A stretch of DNA of 63,220 nt, the filler included, from Reclinomonas americana ATCC 50394 (Eukaryota), in the NCBI GenBank assembly GCA_048213135.1. It is 6 parts of 5 records of this genome, joined end to end, with 100 filler letters (N's around TTAATTAATTAA, not from the genome) between each part and the next. Parts side by side here need not be neighbours in the genome. Positions count along the whole stretch, not along the records: positions 26,831 to 38,868 come from PS015193.1; 5 more parts are not named here. The stretch is one strand, 5' to 3'. Shown in pieces: positions 19,249-49,557 of the stretch. Position numbers and translations under genes: made by a program. Numbering within the stretch: the first letter of the stretch is position 1; the number at the start of each line of letters is the position of its first letter. The notes below the pieces were generated by a model. The model saw only the letters and a list, made by a program, of their open reading frames with translations, was not told where the DNA came from and searched no databases.

Positions 19249-20146
19249 TCAGCACTTGTCGTCTGCGCACCCGGGGGGGCGGGATGAGTGAGTTACCAGC
19301 TGCGCAAACAGTGAACAGCGTGCAGCACGCACCATGGAAGTCCCAGCGAGTCAGCTTGGGCGACCGATCGTAGCCGACCATGCTGACATATCTCGCGTCA
19401 TCGGCCGGCCCCACCTTGCATCGCACGTGAGCAGAAGAGAAAAAAGAGACAAGGAGGAGGAGGATGAGGAAGACCTTCTCTGTGGCCGACGAGAGCATGC
19501 TCTGCAGCGAGATGCACACCGAGGCCACTGTCAACACCGGACTCCACTCGTCGTACAGCGTCGACAGGCAAATGTGTCCATTCGAGTACACATGTGGCTG
19601 CGCAACACAATAAAAGAAGAGTAAGGTTCTCTGGGTGGGAAGAGAGAGCACATATGTGAGCGTGTGTGCGCAACGTGTCGCGGTGGACTGCCCACAAACA
19701 CCACCTCCGGACTGTCGACTGCACAAAAAGAGGGTGTGAGAGTCTCTTCCTCTTGTCTCTCTTTCTCTCACCACACACTCACCCGGGTATTGATCACTGA
19801 AGCGGAAACGAACTCTGTGCGTGTAAGAAGAGTGTGAGTTGACAGAGGAAGAGGAGGGAGTTGAGGAGAGAGAGAGAGAGAGAGAGAATGAGTGCACAAG
19901 CGAACCTGAATGTTTCGTCCTCATACAGACTACCTGGTGCGCCGTGGATCCACACGTAGGCCTCGTCGGAGCGACCAGCAGGCACTGCCGACTGTGTGTG
20001 CATGTGAGTGAGTGACTGTGTGTGTGAGAGAGAGTGACACAAAGAGGCACACACACACACACCTCGTCAATCTCAATGCCCTCTGGTGGCGACGAGCGCA
20101 GCTTGCCCAGCTCCTTCTCCAGTCTTCGATGCTTGAGGCCGCTCAT
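19249..20146 (-). CDS. UBE2W: Ubiquitin-conjugating enzyme E2 W-like
   Basis: 7 exons: RLEKEL..GAPGSLYEDETFRVRFRFSDQYPVDSPEVVF..PPRHPHVYSNGHICLSTLYDEWSPVLTV..SLQSMLSS..WDFHDDKC*. HPHVYSNGHICL and the C-terminal W.FHDD.C are typical of UBE2W. Confidence 0.93.
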
Positions 20147-20248: not shown

Positions 20249-22021
20249 TCATCGCCGAGGACCGCCGACTGCTCGTGGCGGTGCCTTCGCTAATGGTGCC
20301 ACAGTGGAGGAGAGTGGCACAAGGAGATCGGGATCGGCGACGCCACCGCCGGCGGTGACGCCGAGAGACGCGTGACTGCCGACCATGCCGGTCACTGTCG
20401 GCACTGTGAATCCGCTGGTGGCGGTGGTGGTGGTGCGAGGCGTGCGCGGGAAGATGTTGTCGTAGTCGTCGTCGTCGCCGTTGTCGGTGTCGAGGTCCGA
20501 GTCCTCGTGCATGAGCCGTTGCTTTAGTGCCGTCGGCTGCGATTGCGGGAGCATGCCGAGGTGTGGCGTAGGGGCCACTGTCGAGTCCAGCGACACAATC
20601 GTCGACGACGAGGAGCGCTTCTCGCGCGACATGGCCGGCGGGTGCGAGATGCGCATGGTTGTGGGGTAGTCGTCGAGCTCGGCGGCCACCGACGCGTCTT
20701 GGCGGAAAAAGTCTGCGGCATTGCCGATCGCGAACGCGTGGTACGTGCCGCTGTCTGGTCGCAGCATGCGGCGGCGGTGCAGCAGCATCACCACAAACAC
20801 CGTGAGATTGGTCAGCCCCAGTGTCTGCAAAAAAACGGGAGTGAGTGACAACACAATGGAGAGAGCGAACGCGACTTGCACACCTCCATCATGAGATACG
20901 TGGGATCGTGAGGCCAGGCAGCACCAAACAGCTCCGCCATGAACGCCACGCTAAACACGGAGCAGCACACGCATCCCGCAACGGAGATCACCAGCGCCTG
21001 TCATCACCACCGCCACCATCAGCAACAAATGATTGGATAGCGGACATGGAAGAGGGAGTACCTTGCGAATGGCCGTACGCAGATGCGCGCTGGCATTGGA
21101 GTAGGCATTGGCGCGTTGCACGAGATGCAACAACAGCGGCGTCAACACCAACAGCAGGAAGAACATCAAGTTCGACACAAAGAAGCAGCCGGCGACGGCT
21201 TGCGAGAGCGTCGGGCACACGGGATTGTTGGCAATGGCATCGATTGTGTTGCAAGTGGTTCCGTGCACGGCAATGATCACGACCAGCGCCACAAACAACA
21301 ACACCTGAATGCACATCATCACGCCCACCGAGGCCGCCAGGAAGCTGCGCAGATTGCACGGACGCCATCGATTCGAGATCACCGACGTCAACACAAGGTA
21401 CCAGTACACCGACACTGATGTCACAATGACACTGTAACACATACACGCATGCATGAGTGAACGAGTGAGTGAGTGAGACGCTTCTCTGCAGGCAGACGAA
21501 ACGCGAGACAGGCATTGGCTAAGGCGACCACGGCCACATCGGCGGCAAGTGGTGCGTCAATCGGCAACCACAGGTACACAAAGATGACCACAGACTCCAC
21601 ACAGCAGCCAAAACGCAGTACTTGAATGAGCCAGAAGATGAGCTTTTGCCGCACACTTGCACTGTGTGTGTGTGTGCAAATGATGAGTGAATCTCTCACT
21701 CTTTCTCTCTCTGTGTGTGATGATGCACTCACCGGCGCCCGGGCACGTAAAACAAATGAAAAGCTAATGAGGCGGCAGCTAATATCATGGCCGCTAGTGT
21801 GGAGATGCTAATGACCACACATTGTGCTTGCTGTGAACAGTGTGTGTGTGCGCGTGAGAGAGTGCACACACACACACATGCGTGTTCTCTTCACTGGGAT
21901 ACGCAACTGGGAAGCCGACACACATGCTGGCTGCAGCGCCCCACCGGCCTCCACTCACACTCACACTTATGTATCGATATGTGTGTGACTCACTTGTAAA
22001 AACTTCACTCATTTGGCTCAT
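20249..22021 (-). CDS. Seven-transmembrane (GPCR-like) orphan protein with disordered C-terminal tail
   Basis: The spliced product has seven hydrophobic segments (VVISISTLAAMILAAASLAF; LIFWLIQ..VVIFVYLWL; VAVVALANACLAVIVTSVSVYW; FLAASVGVMMCIQVLLFVALVVII; AVAGCFFVSNLMFFLLLVL; ALVISVAGCVCCSVFSVAF; TLGLTNLTVFVVMLL), then an S/T/D-rich tail. Confidence 0.6.
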
Positions 22022-22103: not shown

Positions 22104-25100
22104 TTACTTGCCGACACCGGCGGCGGAGGCAGCAGCGCCGGCCACTGTGCTGGGTTCGATCTGTGGGAAGGAGGGTGGGTGTGAGGTGTTGCCATGATCG
22201 GGTGGTGAATGCACAAATAAGGAGAGTAACCTCGGCGTACACCGAGGCGATCTCGTCGGCGTAGCGGCGGGCGAGCACTGGGCGCTTGATCTTCATCCTG
22301 TATATGCGGTGGTATTGGCGTGTCATGAATCACATTGACATAGAAAAAGAGCGGCGGGGGAACGAAACGTGGGTGTGCAGGCGTCATTGTCCACTGCGAA
22401 ACGACACGGGCGAGGCAAGTCAGTGCGGTGCACGAAACAGCACCGGGAGGGGAGGAGAGACAAAGAGTACAAACCAGTCCACGGCTCCTGCTCGACGATA
22501 ATGGCCGCCGGAATCTCAAAGCTGGTGAACTGTGCGGCGAGCACGGGTGTTACAAGAGGTGCCACACACACACACACACACAGCAAGAGATGCGTGCACT
22601 TCATTCGACGTGCCTTCTCCGCCTTCGCAATGGTCCTGATCTGCTCGTGGATCTCAGCCGACAGCTGGTCACGCTTGTCCGACGCCACCACCGCTTGCAA
22701 AATGGTCTGCCACGGATCGACAGTGAGCATGCAGCGGGAAAGCGGCACGAAGAAGGGAGACGTGGCTCACCTCGGTGCCGCGCTTCTCAATGCCGTGATG
22801 GGCAGCCCAGGCCGTCACCGCGACTGCAGGAAAGAGGGGATGAGACGACGCCATCGGAACGTAAAACACAGTGGATCACTCACTCTCGTCGGGCACGACA
22901 ACGGCGATTAGCTGTGAAACGCAGCGGAAAACTGTTAGCGGCACAGAGGGAAATAAAAGGCAAGGCAAGCTAGGCGACGAAACCTTGGTGCGCAGGCCGT
23001 CACCTGCAACAAAGAAGCCAAGACAACAAGAGTCAGTCTCCAGCACCACCCTCTCAGCACACGAGAAAGAAAGCGCACCGTACACAAAGATCTGGCCGAC
23101 CAGAGTGGCCGCGGAGAACGCGCCCTCCAGCTTCTCGGGACTGTGTCAACACATAACGCGTGAGGGACTCCAGAAACCACCACCAGGCAGCTCGATACGG
23201 AGGGAGACGCAACGCAATGTACTCGCCGAGTGCCGTCTTGAACAGAGCTGCACCGCGAGTACAGAGTGTGAGAGAAACACATGAACGACAATCAATTCTG
23301 CACAGAAAACGCAACACTTGGCACGGTCGACAATCGAGAAAGTGCCGTTCGGGTTGCGGCGACCAATGTCACCGGTGCGGAACCACCTGCAACAACACGT
23401 CAGCGACACTCGCCAGCAAGAGGGCGGGAGGGCAGATGGGACATACCCGTCGCGGAGGAACACCTCGGCGGTCTTCTCCGGCTCCTTAAAGTAGCCGGCC
23501 GTCACCGTCGGGCCGCGGATGCACAGCTCACCAGACTCTGGCAGGCGGTACGGGCCAAACTCCGACGCATCGGCAAACTTGATCTCCACGGAGATCGTGG
23601 GAGCGCCAATGACGCCGACATCGCCGTCGTTGACGAGCTGGATGGTGGAGGCGGCGCACGTCTCCGTCAGACCGTAGCCCTGCACCACGTTGCACATGAA
23701 GCACCTGTGTGTTTGCGCGCGCGAGTGTGTCAGCAAGAAACGNNNNNNNNNNNNNNNNNNNNNNNNNNNNNNNNNNNNNNNNNNNNNNNNNNNNNNNNNN
23801 NNNNNNNNNNNNNNNNNNNNNNNNNNNNNNNNNNNNNNNNNNNNNNNNNNNNNNNNNNNNNNNNNNNNNNNNNNNNNNNNNNNNNNNNNNNNNNNNNNNN
23901 NNNNNNNNNNNNNNNNNNNNNNNNNNNNNNNNNNNNNNNNNNNNNNNNNNNNNNNNNNNNNNNNNNNNNNNNNNNNNNNNNNNNNNNNNNNNNNNNNNNN
24001 NNNNNNNNNNNNNNNNNNNNNNNNNNNNNNNNNNNNNNNAACATCAGCATGAATATCACGGATGGAAAACGCACGCGCGGAGGAATTGCTGGATCTCCGG
24101 GCGCAGAGGGCCACCACCAGAGATCATGGTGTGCAGGCGACCGCCGAGGGTGTTCTTCGTCTTGCGGAAAATCTGTGGTACAGAGAGGATGAGCCAGCGA
24201 CACAAGATCAAGTGCGCCGACAAAAGCACGAAACCAGGCAGTCCATGCAGCACGTGTTGCGGCCCGACATCTTCTTGGCGAGGGCGTTCTGGAAAAGGCG
24301 CTGCTTGCGGGCCGGGAGCTACACACGAGGGGTGAGAACGCGGAAGAGCGCTGTGCCGATCGTACAGAAGCGTACCTTGGCCACATTCTGTAGCAGCACA
24401 AACGGGAGAGAGATGAGCATGGCAATTAAAGAATGGGAGATGATCACTGCACGGAACGCACCGCCATGACACCGTCGTGGAGACGCTCGTAGATGCGCGG
24501 CACACCGGCGAGGATCGTCGGGCGGAGGGCACCTGCACGATGACGCGACGAGTGAGCAAAGGCACACGGGTGAGTGACATATTGAACAGCACGCACCCAA
24601 GTCGTCCTTGATCTTGCGCGGGTCCTGCGGGGAATACAACAAGACAGGTTAGCATCGCCGAGGTTCAAGCCGGCCACTGCTGCAGCTGTTCTACACACCC
24701 CACTGTAGTAGCCAATGGAGCTGCCGCACATGAGGAAGAAGTTCTCAATCACACGCTGTGTGCAAAATGAGGCGAGATTATAAGAGTCGGTGACAATGGA
24801 AGCCAGTGAATTCGGGGGAGCGCAGACGCACCTCGAAGATCTGGTTCGCAAGAATGCACACAGATGATACAAATGTGAGCACAGATAATACAAGGAGAGC
24901 ACGAGGTTGATTGGTTACGCACGTGAGCAAGCGGGAGGAACGCCAGGATGCAGTCACACGTCTTCAGGCGACGCATGTTGCTGGCAGCACCTGCACACAG
25001 CATCAGCGTCAGCAGCCCGACACGAATCCTGGTCTTTTCACACACACGCAGCACCAACCAGCAATCGCGGCCACCATGTGGTTGTGGTGAATCATGACAC

Positions 25101-26650
25101 CCTGCGTCGATCAGTGAGCACGATACCACACAAATGAACGCACCCTTGCAATGCTCACCTTCGGCACGCCAGTGGTGCCGCTGGTGTACATGAGAATGGC
25201 CAGCTCCTGCGGCGACGGGAGCACATCCTCCGACGGATGCTCCGCACCCTGTCGCAACAATGAGATCAGAAACTTATCAGCCCCCTCGCATGCGCGTGGT
25301 GAGCACCACACACCAGTCGGCCGAGCTCCTCCAGCGTGAGGATGTTGCGACCGGCGGCGGCGACAGCGGCCTTGTCATTCTCCGTCACCTGATTGTCGAT
25401 GACGATGATGTGGCGCACGAGGGGCACTTGGTGCAGGGTGGACAGGAGCTGTGTGTCACCGGAGGGTGAGCATGCGCCACGATTGAGAGACGCTCGAGAA
25501 CGGATGGAAAACCTTGGCGAGGCATTCGGGAGCGCACAGCACAGCCTGGCACTCACTGTCGTGCACGCACAGGAGGTGTGTGAGAAAAGAAGAACGTCAA
25601 GACAAGAACACGAGCGATAAGCCGACGAAACGAGTGCTCGAGAATGTACCTGCATGGGGCGAAAGACGTCGTCGTCAGTTCACAGACAAAAGGGAAAACA
25701 GATGATTCGCAAACACGACGCAACTCCACGGCATTCGGGCCGAGCGTGTCATACAGCGACACGGTGACCATGTTGCGACGGTAGCACGCTGTGAAACGAG
25801 TGAGAAACCTACCCTTGACTCCCTCTCCTTTCCTCCCGTTTGCTCACCATGCTCCACCAACTGCCACTCGAAGCGAGTCTGCACACGACGAAAGACCATG
25901 AGTCGCACGACACCGCACACTCATTCACCTGGTCGATGACTTGCCTTGGCGTAGAAGCCGATCGGAGCACGCGGCTGCAGTCCCAGGTGGGTCAGACCTG
26001 CACGCACACAATGAGGTTCTCTCCATCGACCATTCTCGCATGGGAGCGCACAAACCAGCAGCGTACTGCGCAATGTGGCGATCGGCCTCCTCGTACGTCA
26101 TCCACTGGTACGGACCCTCCTGGCGATGACTGCACAGAGTGTGTGAGCGCCCTCAACCTCACACACGCACACACACTGCGTCACATCGCGGAAACACACC
26201 CGAGAGCCTTGCCAGTACGGTTGAGTCCCAGGCCGCAGCGGAAGCACTGCGTGCATTCCCTCTTTCAGATCTCTCTCTCACACACACACTCAAACCTGCT
26301 CATGAGGAGCGAGACGCAACGTCGGCCAGCGTGAGCACATCGATCGGGAGATCGGCGTACACATCCTTCGGCTTGGTCACCAACTCAGCACCGGCCTTGG
26401 CATTGCTACAGCGAACAATCAACATGACGAATGTACACACACACACAGCACACAGCGCACAGAGTCGCTCACCGGAACACGCCTGCGCATGTGTGAGAAG
26501 AGAGCGAGAGTGTGAGCACACATCGGTTGCAGAGGAGAGGAGTTGGGAGGAGCAACACACCATCGCCGATATCCACACTCTGTGCGTCCACAGCAGGGAA
26601 GTGCGCAATCTGCGACGCGCTATAGCCAGCGTTTGATGAACAGCAGCCCA
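22104..26650 (-). CDS. Long-chain fatty acyl-CoA synthetase (ACSL/LACS family), about 32 introns, 5' end at contig edge
   Basis: Motifs YTSGTTGVPKGVM, FLPLAHIFER, QGYGLTET, GELCIRGP, WFRTGDIG, IVDRAKSLFKTALGEYIAPEKLE and TPTMKIKR all restored by manual splicing. Confidence 0.95.
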
Positions 26651-26774
26651 CTGCATCACACACGCAAAGAGAACGATGAGTGACGTATGCATGACACGCA
26701 TGCACACGCAAGCGATAATAACATCGTGACNNNNNNNNNNNNNNNNNNNNNNNNNNNNNNNNNNNNNNNNNNNN

Positions 26775-26786
26775 TTAATTAATTAA
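26775..26786. other. Artificial scaffold linker TTAATTAATTAA
   Basis: Six-frame stop palindrome flanked by equal N runs; identical copies at five positions. Confidence 0.97.
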
Positions 26787-26866
26787 NNNNNNNNNNNNNN
26801 NNNNNNNNNNNNNNNNNNNNNNNNNNNNNNTGTGGAACGTCGCTGCGCTCACACTCTCGCCCGCAG

Positions 26867-27836
26867 TTACGAGGCCGCCAAGGCCGCACTGGAGCTCACA
26901 CTGCGCAACCTGGAGATGGACTACGTGGATCTGTACCTTGTCCACTGGTGCGCCGCGCTGCGTGTCGCTCATCATGTCTCTCGTCTGACAACTCATTTCT
27001 GTGGGTGACTGCGCAGGCCTGGCGCTGCCGACTCGTCGCTGTTGCGTGCACGATTCTCCTGCTCGCGCACCACCTGCTGTTGCCGACGGAGCTCACCACG
27101 TGCATGCAGGTCACCCGCGGAGGTCGTGGCGCTTCGTGCCGGCACGTGGCGTGCACTGGAGGAGGCATTCGAGGCCGGCAAGGCGCGCTTCATTGGTGTC
27201 TCGAACTACACCGAGAGGCATCTGGAGGAGTTGCTGAAGGCGCCGGCGACCAAGGTGCGCCCGGTGGTCAACCAGATCGAGGTGCACCCGAAGTGCTCGT
27301 GCAGGTGTGTGCTTCTCTGCTTTCATTGCGCACTCCACACCAGAGCAGCACTCAGCGTGTGTCGATCGCATATACACATACGTAGTGCTCTGCGCGAGTA
27401 CTGCCGCGACCACGGGATCACGGTGCAGGCGTACTCGCCACTCGGCGTCGGACAGTTGCTGATGTTTGGTCTCACCGAGATCGATGACATTGCGACCCGG
27501 CACAGCAAGTCGGTGAGTAACGCAGCAGCATGTCTCTCTCTCTCTTCTTCCTCCTGCATCTCTTACAGTACAATGCACTGCAGCCGGCGCAAGTTCTCAT
27601 TCGGTGGAGCGTCCAACACGGCAATGTGGTGCTGCCGCGCTCGTCGGATGCCGGTCGAGTTGCGTACACTGCGGCCATGACTCAGAAGAACCAGCCACGG
27701 TGGCGCCTAACCCGCTTTGCAGATCGCCTCCAACCTTGACGTTTTCGATTTCGAGTTGTCGGCCGAGGAAATGGCCTCGCTCGACGCCCTCAACGACGAC
27801 ATGCACCTGGTCGCCGACCCCGACGCCGAGCCATAA
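26867..27836 (+). CDS. Aldo-keto reductase (AKR5/prostaglandin F synthase-like), 5' truncated
   Basis: LEMDYVDLYLVHWP, GKARFIGVSNY, PVVNQIEVHP, VQAYSPLG, PAQVLIRWSVQHG.VVLPRS, RIASNLDVFDFELS; five GT-AG introns. Confidence 0.93.
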
Positions 27837-30086: not shown

Positions 30087-32588
30087 ATGGCGAGCAGTAG
30101 CACAGACACAACAGACAAGTGTGGTCCGGGCCCAGGCGACGGCGATGAGGTGATGATTGTCAGTGGAGGCGAGGCCTCAGGATCTGGATCACAGGCGCCT
30201 GTGCGACCCATGATCAGCGTGGAAGTGCGCTACCGCAAGGATGTTACGTCTCTCCTCCCCTCTCTTCCTCTCCTCATGTTCTCTTTCTGTGGGGGCGAGT
30301 GTGCGATCTTTTTGGTGTTGTGAACAAGTGCGCGCGCGGGAAGAGAGTGATCATCATCATTGCCGACAACTGCTTCTGTAGGTGTTCACACTCCACTGCC
30401 CCGCGGACTCGGATGTGTCCTTCCTCAAGAATCTGATCGAGGAGGTGTGTGTGCTGTGGTTGCTTGCTGATGCCAGACAGAGTGATGTTGACGACCAGTT
30501 GTTTGTACACAGCTCACTGATGTGCCGCCTGAAGGGTTTGAGCTGCCTCTCTTCCTCTGCTGTGCGCTTTACATGTTACCCCACAAGTGCGTGTGTGCGT
30601 GTGGCACAGTCAAAAGCTCATTGGCCTCACCAAGGGCGCGCCACCAGCGGATTCGGTGCAAATTTTTACTTGTTTTTGGTCGCTTCTAGATCTCACCGCC
30701 ACTGACGGGAATCGCTCTGTCTGTGCAGGTGGCACTCACCGATCTGTATGCTCCGCCGCGTCTGCGAGTGATGCTCGTTGCGTTGCGCTCTTTCCCCCCC
30801 TCTTCTCCTCCTGCCCCTTTGTATTCATTCGGATATCATCGTTTTTTTTGCAGATTGGTGATCCCGTCAAGAGGGTGATTTTGGCGCCCGACGAGGTGGA
30901 GGGTGTGCCGATCTTGCTGGATGACTTTGACATGGATCAAGTGATGTCGGGTTTGTGATGTTTGTGCCTGTGGTGGCGAGCATCGTTGCACCTGCTAACT
31001 GCAAGCGTAGAGGAGGAGATCCGATCTAGAGGCGAGATCGAGCGCAGCCTGCAGGAGCGTGTGCGCAAGGTACGCTCAGAGAGAGGCAAAGAGAAGGAGT
31101 TTATTGTCACGGTGTGGTGACATTGCAAGCAGCTCGAGATCCACTTCATCACGCCACCGCGACCCGGACGAAAACTCCTGGTCCTCGACATTGGTTTGTT
31201 GTGTGACCGGTTTTACATCCCTCCCGTCGATATTGCATTCACTCCGTGTCTTCCACTCCCGCAGACTACACCATCTTTGACTGCAAGAGCACCGTGGAGA
31301 TTGCATGTTGCGTTCGCCACGAGCACTGTCTTGTGATTAGCTGTGGTATTGACGCGTGGGTCGATGCAGTGTGCAAGCGACCAGGCACCGATGAGCTCCT
31401 GTCGGCCGTGTACCCGTACTTTGATATTTGCTTCTGTTACGTGAATGCACGGCAGCCCGGGAAGGGTGTGGCGTGGCATTCACCGTGCATATATGCACAG
31501 GGAGTCAAACCAAGTGGACGTGGATCGAGGCCAAGCTCACGGAAATGGGACTGCTGACACCGGGCATGCCGTTCCGCGTTGGCTGGAGTTGCGTGCTGCG
31601 CCGCTGTCGCTGACATTATCATCTCTGACGCACCGTTGTGTCCCCAGTTCTGGACCGCACCATGATGTTCCCGGTGACATGGGTCGACAAGCACGGCGAG
31701 GAGAAGCGACATGAGGTGTGCTTGCTCACTCGCCTCTTTCGCGTGCTCCTTCACAGTCTCAATAATGCCTGTTGCTCTCGTGCGCACAGGTCAAGCCACT
31801 GGAGGTATGCTCGTCAAAGATTGATGACTTTGTGCTCTGACGCACACTGACATGCATCGTGCAGCTCATTTGGCGCAAACTCGGTCACTTGTACAGCAAG
31901 TTGCGGCAAGCGCAGCACGACATGCAGCACAGGGGGAGATTTGAGGGGCAGCGATGCATTTGAGGCCTATCCTTCGCTCTTTCCCACTTTGCATCGCCCC
32001 TCAACTTCTACCTCTCTGCTTCATGCCACTTGTTGCTCCTGCATCGCCCTCAGCGTCACTCCCGTTGCACTCTTATCACTGTTTCTCACTCCTCGTACAT
32101 CGCCCCCAACTTCCTCCAGTTTGTTTCCTGTTGCTCTTGCATCACTGCTTCTCTGCATCGCGCTTCGACTTCCACCTTACAGGTTCACATCGCATTCCTT
32201 TCCTCTCCTCTCTGGCATGTTCTTCGTTCCCTCAGCACTTCCCTCACCCTTCCTGCACTTTAGTTTGATTCGCACTCCCGCCACGACCCTTTCTCACACA
32301 CACTGCAACAGAGAGAACACCGTGCACGTCGACGATCTGGCACGCAACTTTGTGCTCAACCCTGCCAACGGAGTTGCGTATTCTCCCTCTGCCACATCGT
32401 CACCCCTTCCCCCGCTCACTCCCCGGACACAGATCCGAGTCCAGTCGTACAAGGAGGCAGAGACACGCTACGCAGACGACCGCGAGCTCGTGCTGCTGAC
32501 CAAGTACCTCGTGCAACGCGTGGCCCCACTGGCCGACGTCACCAGCGTCAGCCACAAGAACTGGCGCTCTGTAGCCGAGGAACTGTGA
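30087..32588 (+). CDS. UBLCP1: Ubiquitin-like domain-containing CTD phosphatase 1
   Basis: UBL domain (FLKNLIEELTDVPPEGQKLIGL), PPRPGRKLLVLDIDYTIFD (DxDxT), KRPG, FWSQTKWTWIEAKL, VKPLELIW, NTVHVDDLARNFVLNP, DDRELVLLTKYL; 15 introns. Confidence 0.95.
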
Positions 32589-32729: not shown

Positions 32730-33581
<852 letters not shown>

Positions 33582-33849: not shown

Positions 33850-36800
33850 ATGGCTCTCCCGCGAGGACGATTCGTGTCTGTGCTGTGCGCAGTGGCATGC
33901 GCTGCGCTGTTGATGATCGGTTCGTGTTTTCCGCGTGTGTGAGAAGTGAGACAGAGAGTGCGAAAAAAAGTGTGTGTGTGACATGTGCGGAATACAGTGG
34001 TTTCGTCGCCGGCGCCGGCGTACTCGATTCAGCTGATCAACACGAGTACCATGGGTGTGGCGTTTTACCAGGCCGGATCCAAGAATCCGACACCGCCACT
34101 GCTGGCATCGTCGGCCAAGGCGCTGCTCATGCTGGCGCCCTACAATGCCGCCTACCTGCTGGAGTCCTGTTGCGTAGTGTGTGTGTGCGCGACTCACGGG
34201 AGAGGGAGCGTGCATCTCATGCGCATGTTCGTGTGTGTGTGCAGTGAACATCACGTCGCAGGCGCAAAAGATTTCGTCGACGAACCTCCCGGATCTCATC
34301 AATCTCGACACGGGCAAGTGGCCGGCGCTGTTTGATCTGTGCGCACCTGACGAGTCGCTGGTGTGCGTCACGTCGTCGAATGCGACGGGCATCTACTTGC
34401 GCCAGTTCTCTGTGGCCACACTGCACGACGTTCGCAGGCCACTGTTTCTCGACGGACAGCCCATCACTGGCGGTACGCCAAACCGCTGTCTCTCTCTCTC
34501 TCTCGCTCCGCCTCGCCCCCTCTTCTCATTCTCCTCGCAGTGCTAAACACCGTCAATCAGCATCTGCTGATCGTGGCCTCCAAGGGACCGACTGACCTGG
34601 TGCTGTACGATGTGGACCCGGCAACGTGGACGCTGGTGAAGACCTCGCCACTCGAGGCCAACGATGACCCACAGGTGGCTGGTTTCAATCCACACACGTC
34701 TGACCTGCTGCTCGGCTCCTCCAAGGCCTCTGTCGGCATTGTGCGATACGCCACCGCCGGCGCCGCCGTCAAGCGTCTCGGCAATCTGGCGCTGCCGTCG
34801 GCGTTGGTGTCGCCAATCATTGTCGACAGTGAGCATGACATGGGATACGCCGGCACCGGCGTCGGCACTCTGCTAAAGGTGAATCTCACGGCTGTGCCGC
34901 CGCCCCCGCCACCCAACAACACCTTGTCGGAGATGCTTCTCCTGGGCGACGACTACGCGGACTGGTATTCTGCGCCGGCCCCTCACTACTGGCAGTTGGA
35001 TCTGCCGGGATACATTAGCGTCGGCGGCATCGACTTTACCAACGCACAGGGCTACTTCTCCGAGGCCGCCAAGTCGCCGATGTACATTGTCGACATGGTG
35101 ACGTTCCAGAAGGTGAAAAACATTGACACGGAAAGTTGCGTCCATCCACCCTCTCTCCCCTCTCTCCCCGTCCCTCCCTTCATCACACTCACTCTCTCGT
35201 GTCGCCGACAGTCACTGGCATTGTTGTTGGCCCCGCCGCCACGGCGATCACCGCACTGCACCAACCACGCTTTATCGACACGTGGGAATTGTCGGCGGCT
35301 GATGTTGCGTGTGTCCCCCCCATCTGTTTCTTGTTGTGAGGGATTGAGACTGAGTTTGATTCCGACTGCACCCAGCCGGTGTCGAGCGTGACCTTTACAT
35401 CGACCACCAGCACCACTGCCGTGCTGTCGTGGACTGACCCCATTTACAACGGCGGACTGGCCATTACCGAATATCAAGTGGAGGTGTGTGTGTGTGAGCG
35501 TGCGTGTGCAGAGTGATGGGATCCCATACGGTACTGATCGCGAATGCGTGCAGGTTTCGACCAAGAACACATTCCCGGTGAACACGACGCACGTTCCCGG
35601 CTCCGCTGCCAACCAGCTGTCGCTCACCAATTTGTTGGCGGGCACCAAGTACTACGCCCGTGTGGCTCCAGTCAATGCAATGGGTCGTTCCGACTGGCTC
35701 ACCCAGACGGGCGCCACCATTCGTGAGTCACTCATTTACTGTCATTCCTTCTTTATTTCCGCTTGCGCGCTCACATCGAGGTCGATACGTAGCGAGCACA
35801 CCAAAGACGCTCACAACGCCGACGATTGCCGACATTTCGGTGTCACTGTCATGGACGCTGCCGGTCGACGGCAATGCGTTCCTCACGAATCACCTCGTGC
35901 AGTACTCTACGTCGGCGACATTCACGAGCCCAGTGTCGATCCTCACCAACTCCACTCTGCCGTCGTTCACCGTCACCAAGCTCACACTGGGAGTCAAGGT
36001 GCGTGTGACCACAGCGTCTGATTGTGTATCTCTCTTTGTCTCACACTCTGTTGTGCAGTATTACTTCCAAGTGGCATCGATGAATGCCGGTGGTCGTAGT
36101 GCTTACTCCGGCAGCGTCAGTGCCACGACCAAGAGTGCGTACTCGACCGTCATCACTGTCGCCCACTCCTTTATTCGTTTCCCACTCATTCACACTGCTG
36201 TTTCGATTCGCAGCCGTCGTGCCGGATCCACCGAAAAAGCCTGGTGCCACCAAGGTTCAGGGACACGCTCTGACGCTGACCTGGGATCCAGCACACGATG
36301 GTGGCACGTCCATCACACAGTACGCCGTGCAAGTATCGCAGTCGTTTGGTTTCTCCGACAACCTGCAGTTTGAGTCGACCATGTTTCGTGCCTCGTGCCG
36401 ACTGTTTTTTTTTATTTCCTCGTGTAATATGTCATTTTGATCTCACCACGCAATGCGCAGTCCGATGCTGAACGTGACTGGTCTGTACGGCGGTACGCAG
36501 TACTATTTCCGAGTTGCCGCACGCAATGCTGTCGGACTGGGTCCGTACAGCTCGGCCTTGGGACCCGTGACGACACTTCGTTGCGTGTGGAGGGGTCGTT
36601 CGTGAACCTGCCGCCGCCGTGTATTGACAGTCTGCTGTGCAGCCACTGAGCCGTCGGCGCCGTACAAGCCCTCGGTGTCACAGATCACGAGCATGGTCGA
36701 CAGCCAAGTGCAATTTGTGTGGAACAAGGGCAACTCGACGGGCGGCTCGCCAATCTCGCAGTTGCGTCGTCGTTCACCTCGGGCTTCACTTTGCATCGTG

Positions 36801-38833: not shown

Positions 38834-38912
38834 CTGACACGCACATGACACAAAAAATCAGCCACCTCNNNNNNNNNNNNNNNNNNNNNNNNNNNNNNNN
38901 NNNNNNNNNNNN

Positions 38913-38924
38913 TTAATTAATTAA
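38913..38924. other. Artificial scaffold linker
   Basis: TTAATTAATTAA within Ns. Confidence 0.97.
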
Positions 38925-39573
38925 NNNNNNNNNNNNNNNNNNNNNNNNNNNNNNNNNNNNNNNNNNNNCTCGGATGAGGTTCGCTCGCGGCGTTGATACA
39001 AGGGACGTGTTGTCTGGAGTGCGGAAGGGTCGGAAGAATGCGTGCGCGCGGTCGGGACGATCGGAATAACATGGCGAGCTGCTACTGCTGGGCCGGCACA
39101 CCTTGCAGAGTCTCGAGAGGCCGTATGCGGTGTAAGCGTGACCCTCTTGTGGCTCGTCATCCCACATGGTGTTGCCAGTAAGCCTGCCAAAGTGCAGCTG
39201 GTTTTGATAACAAAAATATTACTGTTTTGTTCTCCTCTCTCCTGTCTGCTCGCAGTTGGAGTGCCGACAAGCTCATTCGTGCGCGATTAGGCGCAGTGCA
39301 CGTTCTCGCTGTTTCTTCTCTCGCATGGCAATGGACAACGAGTTTCTAGTCGTTTTTCTAAGTGTTTTACATTCTACCATACACCACCAGCAACAAGAAG
39401 CAAACAAAATTGGTGCCAACAAGCCATGCAGGCACGCAGGCACACAGACACCGAATCGCATAACATCGTGATCGCGGTGCTGCTCCGTGCGCGCCATTCA
39501 TGCTGGCACTCGAAAAGGAACCAAAAACGTTCTTGTTGCGGCCCAAGGGGCACGCGTGCGCAGCGCCTGTTGT

Positions 39574-43800: not shown

Positions 43801-46800
43801 TGCTGGAGTGCAGCACGTTGGTTGTCACTCACGAGAGTGCTGCGGCGCGTGTGAGTGGAGCTCTGATCGACTTGCTTCTCGCTGACACCAGAAGTAGACC
43901 GGTTTGTGTTGTGCCTTCGGCGACTCTATCGTTCCGCTCGCTCACGTTGTCGCTGCACAGGACCACATTGTGGAGCGTCTGGAGGCTGTGGTTGATGCAG
44001 CAAGCGAAAGTGTATGCCGTGACCAGGTCATGCAGGCCTTTTGGCATCATTGGGCGGCGCGAGTCCACGAACTGCGTCCCAGTGTGCTGCGGGGGTGAGG
44101 CGTTCTACCTTCCACATTTCGGTCTGTTCACCCAGGCGACTCACATTGCTGCGGCTACAGTGTGCTTTCGTCGAGAAAGCTGAAGACTCTGCAGTTGGCG
44201 TCGCACTTTGTGTCGGAGGAGGGCCGTGTGCACATTCAGATATGGGCACGCACGTGGGATCCCGACACGCTATTCCTGACCGTGAATGCCATCAGCGACG
44301 CTATTGACACCAGCCGGGTTAATACCTTGCACCCCTTGCTCGTCAACGTGATTGAGGGACTGGCCTCGGTTCCTGGTGCTACTCGTCCAGTTGACTCGTC
44401 GCTCGCTGCTATACTGCGCATCCCCGAAAGTCTCATCTCAGTGCGTGTCTATACCAAAGGTCTGTTTTGCGTCATGTAGTAGCGCTCATCTCGTGTTGTT
44501 ATGTTTTCTTGTTGCCTGCAGCTGTGTCGCCGCATCCAAATGGCCGAACACAGACCAGTCGTTCAGGCTGCCTTTGAGAAGGTGACACACAGAGACCGCC
44601 GCCGCCTATTACTGTGTCTCTGACCGCGCTTCTCCGTGTGAGTACAGCTGCTTCGTGAGTTCCGACCGCGTCAAGTCACCGCTGTCCTCCAACGCGTGTC
44701 ATTGCAAGTGGGTCTATGGAGAGACATGTCGGATGCCGCGCAGCGCATCGCCTCGGCCAGTATGATGGTGACACTGTTGCATCAGACTGTACTCCACCTG
44801 TGCCAGCGGAATGGGTTGGTTCGTGAGATGATGATCACGCAGACAGGTTTGATGTACCGTCACATGCTGACTTTTCCTCCGGCAGACGCCAACTCAACAA
44901 CACGAAATCATGATCGATTGCTGCAACGAAATGGCCCTCAACCCAGAGTTGTCTCTGCTGGAGGTCATCTTCACCCTCATCGCATTCGGCGACGCCGTTG
45001 GAGACTCGGCCGCTATTCTCCCACTGGCCACGCAGCTCAATCACGTGGCGCGCTGGGGTCGTACTCGACTCAGTCGCCTGCCTCCTGGCTACAGGGAACT
45101 GCGATACCCCACCCACTTTGAGGCACAGCTGGCCCGGGTTCGCTGTCTCTGTTTTTCGTTGCTTCGTTTGCATCTGCTCATCATCTCGGTTTTGTCGCAC
45201 AGTTGCAAGATGGCGTCGTTAGCTGGGGAGATCGCATCCTCCGTCGCTTGCTATCCGAAGATGATGTGCTTGCCATCTGCGCCGGTGTCGATGGCTTCAA
45301 CCAGCTGTGTGAGTGCTTCACTGTGCTTCTGATATCTTGGGTTTCTGACGCGCGGGCGCTCATTGCTACTCTGCCTATGTCTCATCACCCAGGCACTACA
45401 TGCGGGGTGCGGCTGGTCGTCAATCCCGCTGAGCTGCAGCAGGCGGTGGAGCGTGCAAAGGTTGCACACGAGCGACTCGAGCTGGCCTGGGAGTGGCTGC
45501 GTGGTCATCAGATTGCCGGCGCAGAGGGTCCTATTGAACCGGTGAGTTGGATTTTTGCCATGCATGTGTATTGTGTTGCTTTCATACTCAATCTGTCACG
45601 CGGTGGTCCTTTCGCAGTGGAATCGGACCACCATGATATCAGACGCCGACTTTGCGGCGCAGCGATGTGCCAACGATCTCCGCCTCGATGAGAGACAATT
45701 TCGCGCGCTGCATTACTTCCTCGGCCACAAGGTCTGTGCGAAGCTGAAGTGCTGCATTCTACTCTCCCCGTCTGTGCGCTCATCCGTACGTTGTAGAGCA
45801 TTCTCTTCCGCAGTTTTTTGGAAGACGAACTTGCGGGTGTTCGCGGCCAGGCCATTGGTTCCACTCAATTCGGGCAGATGGTGGCGCGCACTGAACATCG
45901 CCTGCATGCTCTCATCGAAGACAGCCGTGTGCGACTGGCCGATCTTCAAGGCCTGCAACAAGTGACGCGTATTGCTGGTGCCGGCCGTGCTTTCCAAGCC
46001 GAGCTGACTCTAATGTTGCGCGCGCCCGCATGTGTTGTTGTGTTACTTTGCCAGTCCTTGTGCCTCACTTGCTCTTTACAGCTCCTCGTACTTCAACGGC
46101 AACATGGACGATGTGCGCCGTGTGACAGACGCGGAGATTCAACAGCGCATTGAGCGCCTTCAGTGCGCCACCAATGTTCTCGCTGCACGCTCACAGCTCC
46201 CAGCCCTTCTCCAGTGCTTGCGCTCGATGAACTTGATGGGAGCGCCGGAAGTTGGCGTCCTTGTTGCGCGTGCGCACGACCTACTGGACGGTGACTCGGA
46301 CCAATGGACGTTGGCTCACGTGCAGCAGTTCCACGAGTCGCTGGTGCAGGCCCTGAATCCTCTCAGCATTGCGCATCTCGACTTCTTTGGTTTGTTCCTC
46401 CGATGCAGCAGTGTGCAGTTGTGTTGCTTTCTGATTCCTGCACAATCCATTGCAGTGGTGGTTGAGCAGGCGCACCCTCTCATCGAGTTCTTGCGTGGCG
46501 AGAACGAGTCCATCCATGCCATCTTCGACAAGCTCAACACCAATGTCGGACATGCAGGCATTCAGCGTGAGCTGCTAAACGAAGTGCAGGCAGCGTATCC
46601 ACTGCTGGCGCCGCTTTTGCGCCCGAACTGCACTTTCCAAGAATTGGCGCGCCACATTCGCGGTCGTCTACAAGATGGCCGTGACGGAGCGATGCAGTTG
46701 CAGGTGTGGCGTCTGCGTGCGTGTGTGTGCGCACTCGTGTCGTTTGTGCTGACGCTTCGGCGAATGTAGTGTGTTGTGCGCAGTGCGCAGAATCTGACGC

Positions 46801-49457
46801 AGATCCAGCTGCTGTTCCGGGAACGCGATGACGTGAAAATGGAGGACTTGTTGCCGCAAGTTGCTCACCGTTGCTGGTGACTACGAGTTGGGAAGGTTTG
46901 CTTGCTCACGCCAGCGTGCTTTTTTGTGTCGTGCAGGTCGTGTTGCTGGTCGAACGAGGCGTGTTTGTGTCGACGCTGCGCGGCAGTCAGATGAAACGCG
47001 ACACCCTTTCCATCTACTATGACTCGGAGCGCGCAGAAGGCGTTCCTGAGCGCGTACATCTCTCCACTGAACAGTTTGAGGATCTGGTTCGTTGCTGCTG
47101 CGATCACTTATTGTTTCCTTTTGCTTCCCTTCCATTCACTCACGATCCGACGGCAGTTGCGTGGGGCTGTCATGTGCGAGAGTGAGGCACGGGACGAGCG
47201 CGATCGCGAACATTTGCAGCAGTTTACGGAGGCCATTGGAATCGCTCGTGCCTGCCATCACCTCCGCCTGGCATTGGAGACGGCCGGTCACCCCAACTTC
47301 CAGGGCCTGTCGACCCCCCTCATTGCAGCGCGCGGTCTCTCGCTGCCACAATTGCGCCGTGCGCAGGAAGAGCTCCAGGCCGATCTCGGCGCCTGGAATG
47401 GTCGCTTGTCCGCCAGTCGCCAGCAGTGCAAACCGCTGTACTTGCTGGACACCAGGCAGTTGCTGGTGAGTGTTGTGGTCGATCTGGCGCCACGGTCCGA
47501 CTGTTGCGTGCCTTGACTAAACAACCAAATGACACAGGCCCTCGTGCGCCACTTGAACGAGTTTTCGCGCGCGGCTGCAGCCCCGGGTGCAGCTGGCGGA
47601 TCGACCGATCTGCGGGTGGTGGTACTCAAGGCGTACCTCATCGCATGCTATCCGGAGGTGGCACCCGATCGCTTCGATTCAGATTCGGTGCTCGGGGCTT
47701 TGCAGTCTGTCATTGATGGCAGACTGCAAGATTTGGATGCGGCCGTTGCTTTTGTGCAGGCTGGTGGTCAGGCGGCTGGCGTGGTGGAGGATCCGTTTGC
47801 CGAAGGTTTGTTGTCTGCGTGTGTTTGTGCGTGCGACTTGTCGTGCACGGTTGACGTTCCTCAACCCTCGGCGCTTCTCAAACGTAGGTGACTTTGTGGC
47901 ACCAACTGTGTACTCGGTCTTGCAAGCTGGTCGTGCCGAGGTCTCGCGACTGCTGTTTGAGCTGTTCGGAAAACCGCCGCATCCATCGTGCGTGCTTCCA
48001 TGCTCCAGCTCGACCACGTTTGAAGATGTTGCGTGGCGTCGCGTCCCCGAGGATGCGTGTTGATTGGACAAAAATTATTGCTCACGTGTGTGAGGCTGTA
48101 GCTCGAGGCATTCTTGCAACGAGCACAGCAATTCTCTGCACTGATCTTTGCCGTGGTTGGCGTCAATCGACTTTCATTTGCCGTGCGAGAGCATCTGCTG
48201 ACCAAGCTCACCGAGATTGTGGAGGCCAAGCCGCGCGCACCACTGGCGCAGTTGTACCTTGTTTTCACCGAAAAGCAGGGTATGTGTATGCATGTTCACA
48301 GGTCTTGTCATTTTGCTGCGCATGTTGCTCACTGCACATGCTCTGCTTTCCGATTGGCCAGGGCTGGACGTGTTCAGTTTCCTGGATCGCGAGGAGCGCA
48401 CGTCTCAGCAGCTGATGTCGACAAATCAGTTCCGCGACATTTGTGTCCAGCGCTTCCAGGCCAACCGCATCGGCGAGTTCGAGCTGGTGACTGGTGCAGT
48501 GGGTGACGGCAAGTCGCACTCTATCCGAAAGCGGCTGACGAAGGTGCCTGCGGATGATCCTGCTGCTGCCGATCAGCTGCTCACCTTCACGGTGCCCGTG
48601 AACGAGGACTTTAGTCCGTCGCTGTTCATTCGACACCTGCGCAAGCGAACTGATGCGGCCCAGGTGCGCGTGCACGTCAACGTGTCCCCGTTTGCACCCT
48701 GGGACGAATTCGACAGTGCCTTGGCGCAACTGCTGCTCCACGGCGTCGTCCATGACCCCAACACTGGTGAGATGGTGTGCACGACGGGAGCTGCGGGGCT
48801 CTCGGTGTGGCGTCTGTATGTAGAGATTCCAGTTGGGCCGAACCCGGAGGATCCACTGGCCGTGCAAGACATTCCAGAAACAGAGGCCATTGTACAACGT
48901 CTGGCGCCGATGCTGGCCTTTGGCACGCAGCGCCATGTGACTCCGGATGAGGCCTTTGACATAGATGCCAATGCACGACTCGTGGCCTCGTACGCACGGC
49001 TGTACTACAACAACGCGTGGGCACAGTGGGCGCAGGCCGACGACTTGCAGGCTGCACTGCCGGCTGTCGACGACGCAGAGTGCCTGCAGTTGCTGACGCG
49101 AGTGTGGACAGAAGGGTGTCGAAATGTTGCGTAAAGTTGCAGACGGCGCACGTTCAAGTCTGCCCTTCCTCACATTACTGTTTTGCAGGTGCCGCCCGTG
49201 AAGATCTCGCGCCACAATCTTGTGTTGCTGCTGGCGGAGCGTGTGCCTTTCATTGTACGCTTGGTTCGCTACCATCGCGCGATGATGTCGTGGGACCCGC
49301 CGGGCCTTGTGGCGCTGCCGCTGAACGACTACGCATCCATCTTTGAGTGCTTCCTCGACGAGTGCAACGCCTTCTGCAATCCCGATTTGCGCTCAGACTG
49401 GTCATCGTTCAGCCACGGGTACACGTGTCGGGACTTTGACGAGGCGGCGCCAGATGC
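40810..49457 (+). CDS. RNF213/mysterin-like giant AAA+ protein, N-terminal part (3' truncated at scaffold end)
   Basis: Blocks collinear with RNF213: LETAGHPNF; W.GRLSASRQQCKPLYLLDTRQLL; VLPCSSSTTFEDLEAFLQRA..FAVVGVNRLSF; P-loop TGAVGDGKS; HVNVS..FDSALAQLLLHGVVHD..G..W.LYVEIP. The start codon is tentative. Confidence 0.75.
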
Positions 49458-49501
49458 NNNNNNNNNNNNNNNNNNNNNNNNNNNNNNNNNNNNNNNNNNN
49501 N

Positions 49502-49513
49502 TTAATTAATTAA
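49502..49513. other. Artificial scaffold linker
   Basis: TTAATTAATTAA within Ns. Confidence 0.97.
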
Positions 49514-49557
49514 NNNNNNNNNNNNNNNNNNNNNNNNNNNNNNNNNNNNNNNNNNNN

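Follow-up and report, generated by a model that had tools for sequence, protein, structure and literature searches.

Two discrete kinds of GT-AG donor exist in the genome of Reclinomonas americana ATCC 50394, and introns carrying either kind stand side by side within the same genes. The ordinary donor has the consensus (A)G|GU(G>U>A>C)(A/C/U)GU, in which both +5 and -1 are G. The second kind, here called class B, follows N|GUU(G>U>A)CGU, whereby an extra U is placed after GU, C-G-U at +5 to +7 is obligatory and the exon-side signal is absent. Class B makes up roughly 20-35% of the introns, with 34% (13/38) in a set placed by homology and 19% (40/211) in a gene parse blind to the donor sequence. 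This agrees with an earlier note on this DNA, which had described an abundant, discrete class with G at +6 replacing the one at +5.

Intron Samples and Gene Models

The window, i.e., the whole stretch of 63,220 nucleotides analysed here, consists of six pieces with linkers (N44-TTAATTAATTAA-N44) between them, and class B was found on four of these pieces, as had been claimed before. The introns of a long-chain acyl-CoA synthetase gene (ACSL) and a UBLCP1-family gene (n = 38) were placed by homology-guided spliced alignments in which only GT..AG borders were allowed. In addition, the window was parsed into genes without regard to the bases at donor positions +3 to +8, which gave 211 introns within 36.8 kb of predicted exon, a very high intron density. 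This blind parse recovered 30-33 of 40 curated introns exactly (~75-80%), and its 60 donors grouped as "other" are probably mostly wrong calls. Control parses were carried out on the reversed sequence and on the antisense of genes. For exon identities, single-exon ORFs were compared with Pfam and NCBIfam, with Pfam being mostly too insensitive for the short exon ORFs. The genes and class B donors are listed in Table 1.

The exon model of the UBLCP1 gene is a clean 360-codon ORF. Its exon ORFs match TIGR02245, and 123 homologues were found, with the closest named proteins being those of Allomyces and Catenaria. As previously noted, seven of the 15 donors in this gene are shifted, all reading GTT(G/A)CG. 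A profile of 29 homologues aligned to the DNA, again with GT..AG only, reproduced six of them exactly (30777, 31307, 31436, 31588, 31900 and 32373), while the donor at 30243 is placed by the ORF model and the blind parse. At the 32373 intron, 98 of the 123 homologue matches (by our count) are split into two stretches that omit the intron-encoded residues. The last exon had no match in a word-indexed protein search, and an exact 40-mer of exon 11 was absent from metagenome contigs.

The ACSL gene is incomplete, being interrupted by the end of its scaffold and by a gap of 297 N. Spliced alignment with 11 homologues gave 25 aligned introns, seven of which open with GTT(G/T)CGT. The closest proteins are at most 55% identical, and those with a name belong to Bodo, Acrasis, Achlya and Saprolegnia. 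Eight shifted sites had been proposed for this gene; homology returned seven at exactly these coordinates, and the eighth, at 26320, is found in the blind parse.

The junction at 32893 in the H3-like gene, which had been placed by a conserved motif, is upheld by Pfam Histone positions that run continuously across it (positions 22-98 fall in the exon ORF upstream of it and 99-122 in that downstream). In the E2 gene, the UQ_con match begins at the exon downstream of the 19674 donor, and the exon downstream of the 27659 donor matches Aldo_ket_red 266-290. A word-indexed protein search with a 254-aa exon from the large gene (40.6-49.4 kb) gave no match. Together, ORF continuity and homology indirectly suggest that class B introns are removed at the predicted borders.

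All 27 positions listed in the earlier note carry GTT on the strand given for them, comprising 18 GTTGCG, 5 GTTTCG, 2 GTTACG, 1 GTTGAG (29296) and 1 GTTGTG (4057). The blind parse contains 21 of them. Four of those absent from it (31307, 31436, 31588 and 25631) are confirmed by homology, while 4057 and 14525 were recovered by neither approach.

Table 1. Genes and predicted class B donors in the window, with the evidence for each (G+1, first intron base).
Feature	Positions	Strand	Gene	Evidence and remarks
UBLCP1-family gene	30087..32588	+	UBLCP1	ubiquitin-like domain + HAD-IIID phosphatase; 16 exons, 15 introns
GTTACGT	30243..30249	+	UBLCP1	ORF model, blind parse; beyond homology-aligned range
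GTTGCGT	30777..30783	+	UBLCP1	homology alignment, blind parse
GTTGCGT	31307..31313	+	UBLCP1	profile homology, 9/12 single homologues; absent from blind parse
GTTACGT	31436..31442	+	UBLCP1	profile homology, 12/12 single homologues; absent from blind parse
GTTGCGT	31588..31594	+	UBLCP1	profile homology, 10/12 single homologues; absent from blind parse
GTTGCGG	31900..31906	+	UBLCP1	homology, blind parse; opens 412-nt intron
GTTGCGT	32373..32379	+	UBLCP1	homology, blind parse; 60-nt intron, in frame, stop-free
Long-chain acyl-CoA synthetase gene	22225..26730	-	ACSL	Pfam AMP-binding, homologues, spliced alignment
GTTGCGT	26314..26320	-	ACSL	blind parse only; outside alignment
GTTGCGT	25718..25724	-	ACSL	homology, blind parse
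GTTTCGT	25625..25631	-	ACSL	homology; absent from blind parse
GTTTCGT	24228..24234	-	ACSL	homology, blind parse
GTTGCGT	23309..23315	-	ACSL	homology, blind parse
GTTGCGT	23207..23213	-	ACSL	homology, blind parse
GTTTCGT	22977..22983	-	ACSL	homology, blind parse
GTTTCGT	22362..22368	-	ACSL	homology, blind parse
GTTGCGT	32887..32893	-	H3-like	Histone HMM continuity, blind parse
GTTGCGC	19668..19674	-	E2 (UQ_con)	blind parse; within H|PH motif
GTTGCGT	27041..27047	+	aldo-keto reductase	blind parse
GTTGCGT	27659..27665	+	aldo-keto reductase	blind parse
GTTGCGG	3846..3852	+		blind parse
GTTTCGT	21496..21502	-		blind parse
Five donors	34169..36586; G+1 34169, 35135, 35304, 36383, 36580	+	fn3-domain gene	blind parse, fn3 Pfam matches
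Three donors	46015..49132; G+1 46015, 48028, 49126	+	large gene (40.6-49.4 kb)	blind parse
Seven donors	50703..57286; G+1 57286, 56408, 54469, 53152, 52510, 51376, 50709	-	NHL-repeat gene(s)	blind parse, NHL Pfam matches
Eight donors	5472..11993; G+1 11993, 11478, 9061, 8604, 8339, 7687, 6015, 5478	-	coiled-coil gene	blind parse

Donor Motifs and Exon Ends

The earlier note had suggested comparing the frequency of GTT(R/T)CG with that predicted from independent positions, and an excess was observed in both samples. In the homology set, GTT(G/T/A)CG opens 13 of the 38 introns, against 2.2 expected, and the association of +3T with +5C+6G (13/6/0/19) gave a Fisher p of 1.0e-5. In the blind parse, 40 of 211 introns are class B against 6.2 expected (Fisher 4.9e-15). 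The class B motif occurs at 109 of the 7956 GT sites of the window (1.4%), and the control parses contained none (0/37 and 0/34). All 40 class B donors have G at +6 and the extra U after GU by definition, and the class is discrete.

GTTGCG is the top-ranking donor hexamer in the blind parse. Following GTT, C at +5 is near-obligatory, being present in 40 donors compared with a single GTTNAGT and no GTTNTGT. Because of this requirement, GTTGAG, previously counted as a member, falls outside class B. Likewise, the description of these donors as the ordinary motif plus one T holds for the extra T and the displaced G, but not in its general form, since C is required where ordinary donors take A, C or T about equally (27, 28 and 26, respectively, of 83 at +4). 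The +4 base of class B is G in 30, T in 9 and A in 1 (n = 40), a ranking that resembles the one of ordinary donors at +3 (G 61, T 28, A 14, C 8), and the motif therefore fits a register shifted by +1. A T follows the G in 34/40 class B donors, where it stands at +7, and in 49/83 ordinary (class A) donors. GTTTG and GTTCG donors, with T at +3, retain G at both +5 and -1 and behave as ordinary donors.

The two classes also differ on the exon side. G at -1 precedes 6/40 class B donors compared with 93/111 ordinary donors in the blind parse (p 8e-15), and 2/13 compared with 19/25 in the homology set. The class B frequency of 15% equals the background of 16% measured for G before GTT in exons, which indicates that the preference is absent and rules out a depletion of G at this position. 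The exons preceding class B end in GAT in 7/40 cases and in xAT in 10/40. The loss of the exon-end G had been missed in the earlier note.

No other donor motif in the window is as specific as that of class B. Of the 45 copies of GTTGCGT on the two strands, 24 are predicted donors, compared with 14/98 for GTGCGT and 12/82 for GTGAGT, and only 5 of the 45 lie antisense to genes.

Intron Body and 3' End

A CT(C/G/A)A(C/T) motif was found 8-50 nt from the 3' end in 30/40 class B and 60/83 class A introns, at a median distance of 21 and 19.5 nt, respectively. C at acceptor position -3 is present in 36/40 class B and 72/83 class A introns, and the pyrimidine content of class B (60%) matches that of class A. 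Phase and intron length are similar between the classes, and k-mer scans of the intron body and 3' region revealed no difference between class B and ordinary introns once the 60-289 tests of each scan were taken into account. The likeness in branch motif, tract, acceptor, length and phase suggests that both classes probably share their 3' machinery. Thus, class B shows the branch motif, pyrimidine tract and YAG of U2-type (major) introns, with GT..AG given by construction. In a search of the window for snRNA genes, no Rfam match reached the gathering score; four chance-level matches at E up to 1 were to non-snRNA families.

Proposed Recognition of Class B in a Displaced U1 Register

The reading that we prefer, with a probability of about 0.45, is that one major-type spliceosome handles both classes and that class B is read by intron-side pairing with U1, and later U6, displaced by one nucleotide. 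Both classes would then differ only in the initial recognition of the 5' end. In class B, one of the two U's would be bulged or mismatched while the intron side pairs to the 5' end of U1 and later to U6, whereby CGU at +5 to +7 would occupy the role of the +4 to +6 triplet in an ordinary GUGCGU. Given the cost of the bulge to the displaced duplex, only sites that pair at all remaining positions, above all at C, would be viable, and such fully paired sites may no longer need the exon G.

The strict C at +5 points to a pairing partner with a G, which is absent from the canonical U1 box ACUUAC. By hand pairing, canonical ACUUAC in the displaced register would gain pairs at +6 and +7 and leave C+5 unpaired. 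The strict C thus speaks for the variant snRNA suggested in the earlier note more than for mere slippage with a standard U1. The predicted U1 box would carry a G opposite the class B C (ACG.AC type, as reported for Mastigamoeba) instead of the canonical ACUUAC.

Several observations count against the displaced register. A single U1 with G at position 5 that read both classes should give ordinary donors a preference for C at +4, and none was seen. Where ordinary donors lack G at -1 (n = 16), the top +4 base is A (7/16; not significant), which is the preference of canonical U1; tests for compensation within class A were not significant. Furthermore, the bulged register keeps -1 opposite C9 of U1, so that some preference for G would be expected, in contrast to the complete absence observed. 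Finally, of the three bases seen at +4 in class B, A (GTTACGT) should form the best pair with a U or pseudouridine at position 6 of U1, and yet it is the rarest.

In human U1, shifted and bulged registers have been proven with suppressor U1s, cleavage still occurring at GU (Tan et al. 2016, PMC4856993), with human sites of both types described by Roca & Krainer 2009 and Roca et al. 2012, as cited in PMC4856993. Such sites belong to GT-AG introns, have an extra U after GU and pair the G from +6, in place of +5, with C4 of U1, which is formally the register that class B would use. However, the curated human sites reported there amount to 54 (+2/+3) and 36 (+3) among 201,541, i.e., ~0.04%, and all non-canonical registers to 2.1% (PMC4856993), whereas class B represents 19-34% of introns. 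Class B also differs from them in its obligatory C at +5, unpairable by canonical U1, and in having wholly lost the preference for G at -1. The literature found on bulged and shifted registers concerns human or model systems only. The strings GTTGCG, GTTGCGT, GUUGCGU, GUUGCG and GTTTCGT had no splice-site context in literature text, in which donor logos, being figures, are unsearchable.

Re-coding of the U1 box itself has been described in Archamoebae. In Entamoeba, a U1 with ACAAAC accompanies GUUUGU donors, in which +3 and +4 are T and a U at +7 extends the motif (Roy & Bowser, 10.1101/2022.06.08.495308), and in Mastigamoeba, a U1 with ACGUAC accompanies GUGCGC donors, whose +4C is paired to the new G (10.1101/2022.06.08.495308). 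Mastigamoeba thereby supplies exactly the kind of G that class B needs. In contrast to the single consensus in the normal register described for these organisms, two discrete classes, one of them displaced, occur here in every multi-intron gene, and the intron density far exceeds that of Mastigamoeba, for which 2.5 introns per gene are quoted (10.1101/2022.06.08.495308).

Alternative Explanations

Two U1 snRNAs could instead divide the work, with a canonical or near-canonical U1 serving the ordinary donors and a dedicated variant serving class B in an unbulged register. The 5' box of this variant would be one nucleotide longer, complementary to GUUGCGU (ACGCAAC-like), with a base other than C opposite -1. 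The specificity of GTTGCGT (24/45) is more readily explained by a 7-mer paired at every position than by a duplex weakened by a bulge. Different partners are also suggested by a C that is obligatory in class B and not preferred at +4 of ordinary donors, and the complete absence of a -1 preference in class B is in line with this arrangement. On the other hand, a strict 7-bp helix disfavours the variability at +4 (G, U, A), and we know of no eukaryote in which two U1 species split the introns between them. Variant U1 genes are reported in human, and Physarum is said to possess a standard U1 together with modified variants (10.1101/2022.06.08.495308). Overall, we consider a division between two U1s rather unlikely.

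Class B might also represent transformed and expanded minor (U12-like) introns that depend on U11 and U6atac of diverged sequence. A comparable expansion is known from Physarum polycephalum, where a U12-type class of thousands of copies, indeed tens of thousands, with a co-evolved snRNA provides a precedent (10.1101/2020.10.12.336362). Both are abundant second classes with a rigid extended donor and no exon consensus, and class B shares with (G/A)UAUCCUU the rigid consensus up to +7, the C at +5 and the U at +7 (10.1101/2020.10.12.336362). Nevertheless, class B agrees with the U12-type donor at only 4/7 positions, and [AG]TATCCTT is absent from both strands of the window. While the Physarum introns keep GTATCYTT and even the transformed class still has its own branch motif near the 3' end (TTTGA at 9-12 nt; 10.1101/2020.10.12.336362), class B has neither a U12-type donor nor a branch motif of its own. 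Its branch motif, branch distance, pyrimidine tract and acceptor are indistinguishable from those of ordinary introns, on which ground a U12-like origin was rejected as improbable.

The motif could further be a birthmark, i.e., the end of an introner or transposon with a GTTGCGT terminus that created the class B introns and was merely kept. The uniform 7-mer, the very high intron density and the GAT/xAT exon ends, which could suggest a target-site preference, are compatible with one intron-creating process. However, similarity does not extend past +7 (+8 to +12 vary) and no k-mers are common to the body or 3' end, so introner copies were rejected for having no sequence in common beyond the splice signals. 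Pairing between the 5' and 3' ends of class B introns was likewise rejected, the terminal complementarity being no higher than in class A. Moreover, a birthmark would still have to be spliced efficiently, and a reader would be needed anyway. We regard this origin as quite improbable.

An artefact of misplaced junctions, chance or an assembly error adding T to GTGCGT is very improbable and already largely refuted, since, despite the limited exactness of the blind parse, 13 junctions are fixed by homology, the H3 junction to the residue, and the control parses are empty of class B, while a homopolymer error turning GTGCGT into GTTGCGT was rejected because an error inside the intron cannot be the cause of the difference between the classes at -1.

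Implications

It is an open problem by what means a single U1 snRNA accommodates donor sequences that differ from each other and number in the thousands. It is possible, though rather doubtful, that R. americana uses two co-equal donor codes in the same genes, AG|GURNGU and an exon-independent 7-base GUUGCGU, by means of a U1 that is either a second, re-coded one or re-coded in a displaced register. If true, R. americana would provide the first case of a natural genome that relies on a non-canonical register, or on a second U1 specificity, for a major share of its introns, compared with ~0.04%. The displaced-register donor would here be the commonest and most specific donor word and do without the exon G, whereas its human counterpart is a rare and weak fringe. 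Gene finders trained on a single donor matrix will put between a fifth and a third of this lineage's introns in the wrong place. The organism would also serve as a natural system in which to study the possible rise of register shifts to a primary code, a possible diversification of U1 5' ends inside one cell, and the way in which U6 and U5 then define where cleavage occurs.

Window and gene content

The window is eukaryotic DNA with a G+C content of ~57%. Besides ordinary N gaps, it contains five identical linkers, which show that it is a chain of six separate pieces with genes cut at the joins. Pfam searches on long ORFs confirmed several of the gene names proposed in the earlier note, namely the E2, ACSL, aldo-keto reductase, H3-like, fn3 and NHL genes. 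Three exon ORFs of the UBLCP1 gene match NCBIfam TIGR02245, the HAD-IIID family that includes UBLCP1. The closest ACSL relatives show an identity of at most 55%, and the closest named UBLCP1 relatives, from Allomyces and Catenaria, ~50%. No snRNA genes were found in the window by Rfam. Intron density is extreme throughout, with 211 predicted introns per 36.8 kb of predicted exon and a median intron of ~70 nt, and micro-exons exist, including ACSL exons of 18-28 nt.

Features of the window and donors of the shifted class placed by profile alignment
Feature	Position	Strand	Remark
653-codon open frame	15885-17843	+	66% G+C; no Pfam match; coding status uncertain; mostly parsed as one 559-codon low-complexity exon, Ala/Pro/Ser-rich
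UQ_con E2	18.9-20.2 kb	-	Pfam on long ORFs
AMP-binding ACSL	22-26.7 kb	-	Pfam on long ORFs; 5′ end lost at 26730 (piece boundary)
ACSL shifted donors	25724, 25631, 24234, 23315, 23213, 22983, 22368	-	GTT(G/T)CGT
Aldo-keto reductase	26.9-27.8 kb	+	Pfam on long ORFs
UBLCP1 shifted donors	30777, 31307, 31436, 31588, 31900, 32373		
Tandem-duplicated donor word	30777-30788		GTTGCGTTGCGC; second GTTGCG 5 nt downstream; first copy favoured by homology
UBLCP1 micro-exon	31790-31804		15 nt
Sole long UBLCP1 intron	31900-32311		412 nt, C/T-rich; apparently with repeated GCATCGCC-like units
60-nt UBLCP1 intron	32373-32432		in frame, stop-free; retention would add 20 residues
H3-like histone	32.7-33.3 kb	-	Pfam on long ORFs
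fn3	35-36.5 kb	+	Pfam on long ORFs
NHL repeats	50-58 kb	-	Pfam on long ORFs
100-base linkers, N44-TTAATTAATTAA-N44	26731-26830, 38869-38968, 49458-49557, 58013-58112, 61273-61372		stop codons in all six frames

Junctions placed by homology

The window has two discrete donor words whose introns share the same 3′ half: an ordinary one with G at +5, and a shifted one, N|GUU(G>U>A)CGU, with G at +6. This confirms the second donor class that the earlier note had described. To place junctions, protein profiles were aligned to the genome with any GT..AG intron of at least 30 nt allowed at a flat cost and no donor matrix. The profile of 11 eukaryotic ACSLs gave 25 introns on both sides of an N gap, of which three have doubtful junctions (a 4-nt exon, GTTTTCC and GTCTCC). 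Seven ACSL donors that had been read as shifted were placed exactly, as were six of those in UBLCP1, where a profile of 29 full-length homologues gave 13 introns. The hand-read UBLCP1 model is a clean 360-codon ORF, and 10 of its 16 exons are identical in the alignment; the mismatches concern the two N-terminal exons outside the local alignment, the ambiguous pair 30951/30955, and exon 3 and the last exon, where the alignment starts and stops.

The in-frame 60-nt intron of this gene was further examined with 123 homologues, retrieved with the stop-free stretch 32313-32585 as query; by manual count, 98 of them align as two stretches that omit its 20 residues. In the H3-like gene, the upstream exon ORF matches Histone HMM positions 22-98 and the downstream exon ORF positions 99-122, and this continuity fixes the junction at 32893 to the residue, as had been proposed. 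Combined, 13 of the 38 ACSL and UBLCP1 introns begin with the shifted word, compared with 2.2 predicted from independent positions. T at +3 occurs with +5C+6G in 13 introns and without it in 6, while donors lacking this T number 0 and 19, respectively (Fisher, 1.0e-5).

Donor-blind tally across the window

A gene parser that sees of the donor only GT and the three preceding exon bases was then built. Its other terms are codon log-odds, an acceptor matrix, intron composition from +9 only, a length prior and strand competition; it was seeded with 40 curated introns, retrained on its own non-conflicting genes, and recovers 30-33 of the 40 exactly. It called 211 introns in genes scoring at least 20. 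GTTGCG is the commonest hexamer (30 donors), followed by GTGCGT (14), GTGTGT (13), GTGAGT (12), GTTTGT (11) and GTTTCG (9). GTT(G/A/T)CG was observed 40 times against 6.2 expected, so that the excess over independent position frequencies, on which the earlier claim depended, appears in both sets. The corresponding counts for +3T and +5C+6G are 40/39/6/126 (p 4.9e-15). Sixty donors fall outside every class and are probably mostly errors, which makes the 19% share of the shifted class a floor. A second parse with a learned donor model gave 46/196, a circular figure that serves as an estimate only.

The shifted class was absent from a control parse of the reversed sequence (0/37) and from predictions antisense to accepted genes (0/34), while the background of its motif is 109 in 7956 GT sites. 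The 45 copies of GTTGCGT over both strands include 24 predicted donors, 15 more in gene sense, some of them true donors missed by the parse, and 5 antisense. All 27 donors located in the earlier note carry the motif, and 21 were also called blind; the class is spread over four pieces and both strands.

Anatomy of the two donor classes

Ordinary donors (n = 111; 83 with non-T at +3 and 28 GTT(T/C)G) have G at −1 in 93/111, A at −2 in about half, a +3 preference of G>T>A>C, G at +5 and T at +6 in ~60%. At +4, G is nearly absent (window-wide, 2/83 and 3/28 in the two subsets) and the other three bases are similarly frequent, in contrast to the A-rich +4 of most eukaryotes. Shifted donors (n = 40) have T at +3, then G (30), T (9) or A (1), C at +5, G at +6 and T at +7 in 34. 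Their −1 G frequency, 6/40, matches the background rate at which G precedes exonic GTT, 16%. Since the exon-side term of the parser prefers −1 G, this contrast is conservative; in the homology set it is 2/13 versus 19/25 (p 5e-4).

The description of the shifted word as the ordinary motif with one extra T holds for the displaced G but does not generalize. At ordinary +4, A and T equal C in frequency, yet GTTNAGT serves as a donor once and GTTNTGT never. Six more GTNNCG donors have non-T at +3, so T is preferred there, not absolute.

Introns of the two classes adjoin within the same genes and have the median length of ~70 nt and phases in common. Roughly three quarters of introns (30/40 shifted; 60/83 ordinary with non-T at +3) carry a branch-like CTCAC/CTSAY ~20 nt before the 3′ end, and pyrimidine content and the CAG acceptor are alike. 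This motif ranks CTCAC > CTCAT > CTGAC/CTGAT upstream of a nearly invariant CAG, e.g. 32405-32432. No discriminating k-mers were found in the intron body or 3′ region, nor any pairing between intron ends. A transformed U12-like class is unlikely, because the shifted introns lack a separate branch signal (cf. Physarum). It is likewise unlikely that the motif is the birthmark of one intron-creating element, as its copies have nothing in common beyond +7.

Proposed reading of the shifted donors

The +4 spectrum of the shifted class mirrors ordinary +3, with a stricter T after the G, which suggests a displaced register, in which an extra U would lie between GU and the paired CGU. Plain slippage on canonical U1 accounts neither for the strict need for C nor for the lack of any −1 preference. 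The obligatory +5 C calls for a G partner in the pairing RNA, and this favours the variant snRNA suggested in the earlier note, whose interpretation is partly supported overall. One possibility is a single U1 with G at position 5, whose bulged duplex would be viable only if all other positions pair; this would explain why the displaced register is restricted to CGU and why the exon G is dispensable. The main rival is a second and dedicated U1 variant. Two points speak against a single G5 U1, namely that C is not preferred at +4 of ordinary donors and that ordinary donors lacking −1 G tend to +4 A (7/16, not significant); together with the very high specificity of the shifted 7-mer, they favour this rival.

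Searches of full texts returned no paper with the shifted words as donor motifs, nor any species reported to use such a register as one of its main donor classes. These searches covered running text rather than figure logos or supplements, and an earlier description in a genome paper is possible. According to 10.1101/2022.06.08.495308, the canonical U1 box is ACUUAC, Entamoeba has ACAAAC for GUUUGU(U), and Mastigamoeba has ACGUAC with GUGCGC donors, exactly the G-bearing kind that the C of the shifted class calls for. Shifted and bulged registers are proven for human U1, and PMC4856993 counts 54 +2/+3 and 36 +3 bulge sites among 201,541. Judged by donor sequence, the shifted class may work like these registers, a likeness rather than an established membership. 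However, all human non-canonical registers together form a fringe of 2.1% in that account, whereas the shifted class accounts for between a fifth and a third of introns. It is set apart from all cases found by being bimodal, this abundant and independent of the exon, and may reflect one spliceosome with two modes of docking the 5′ end.
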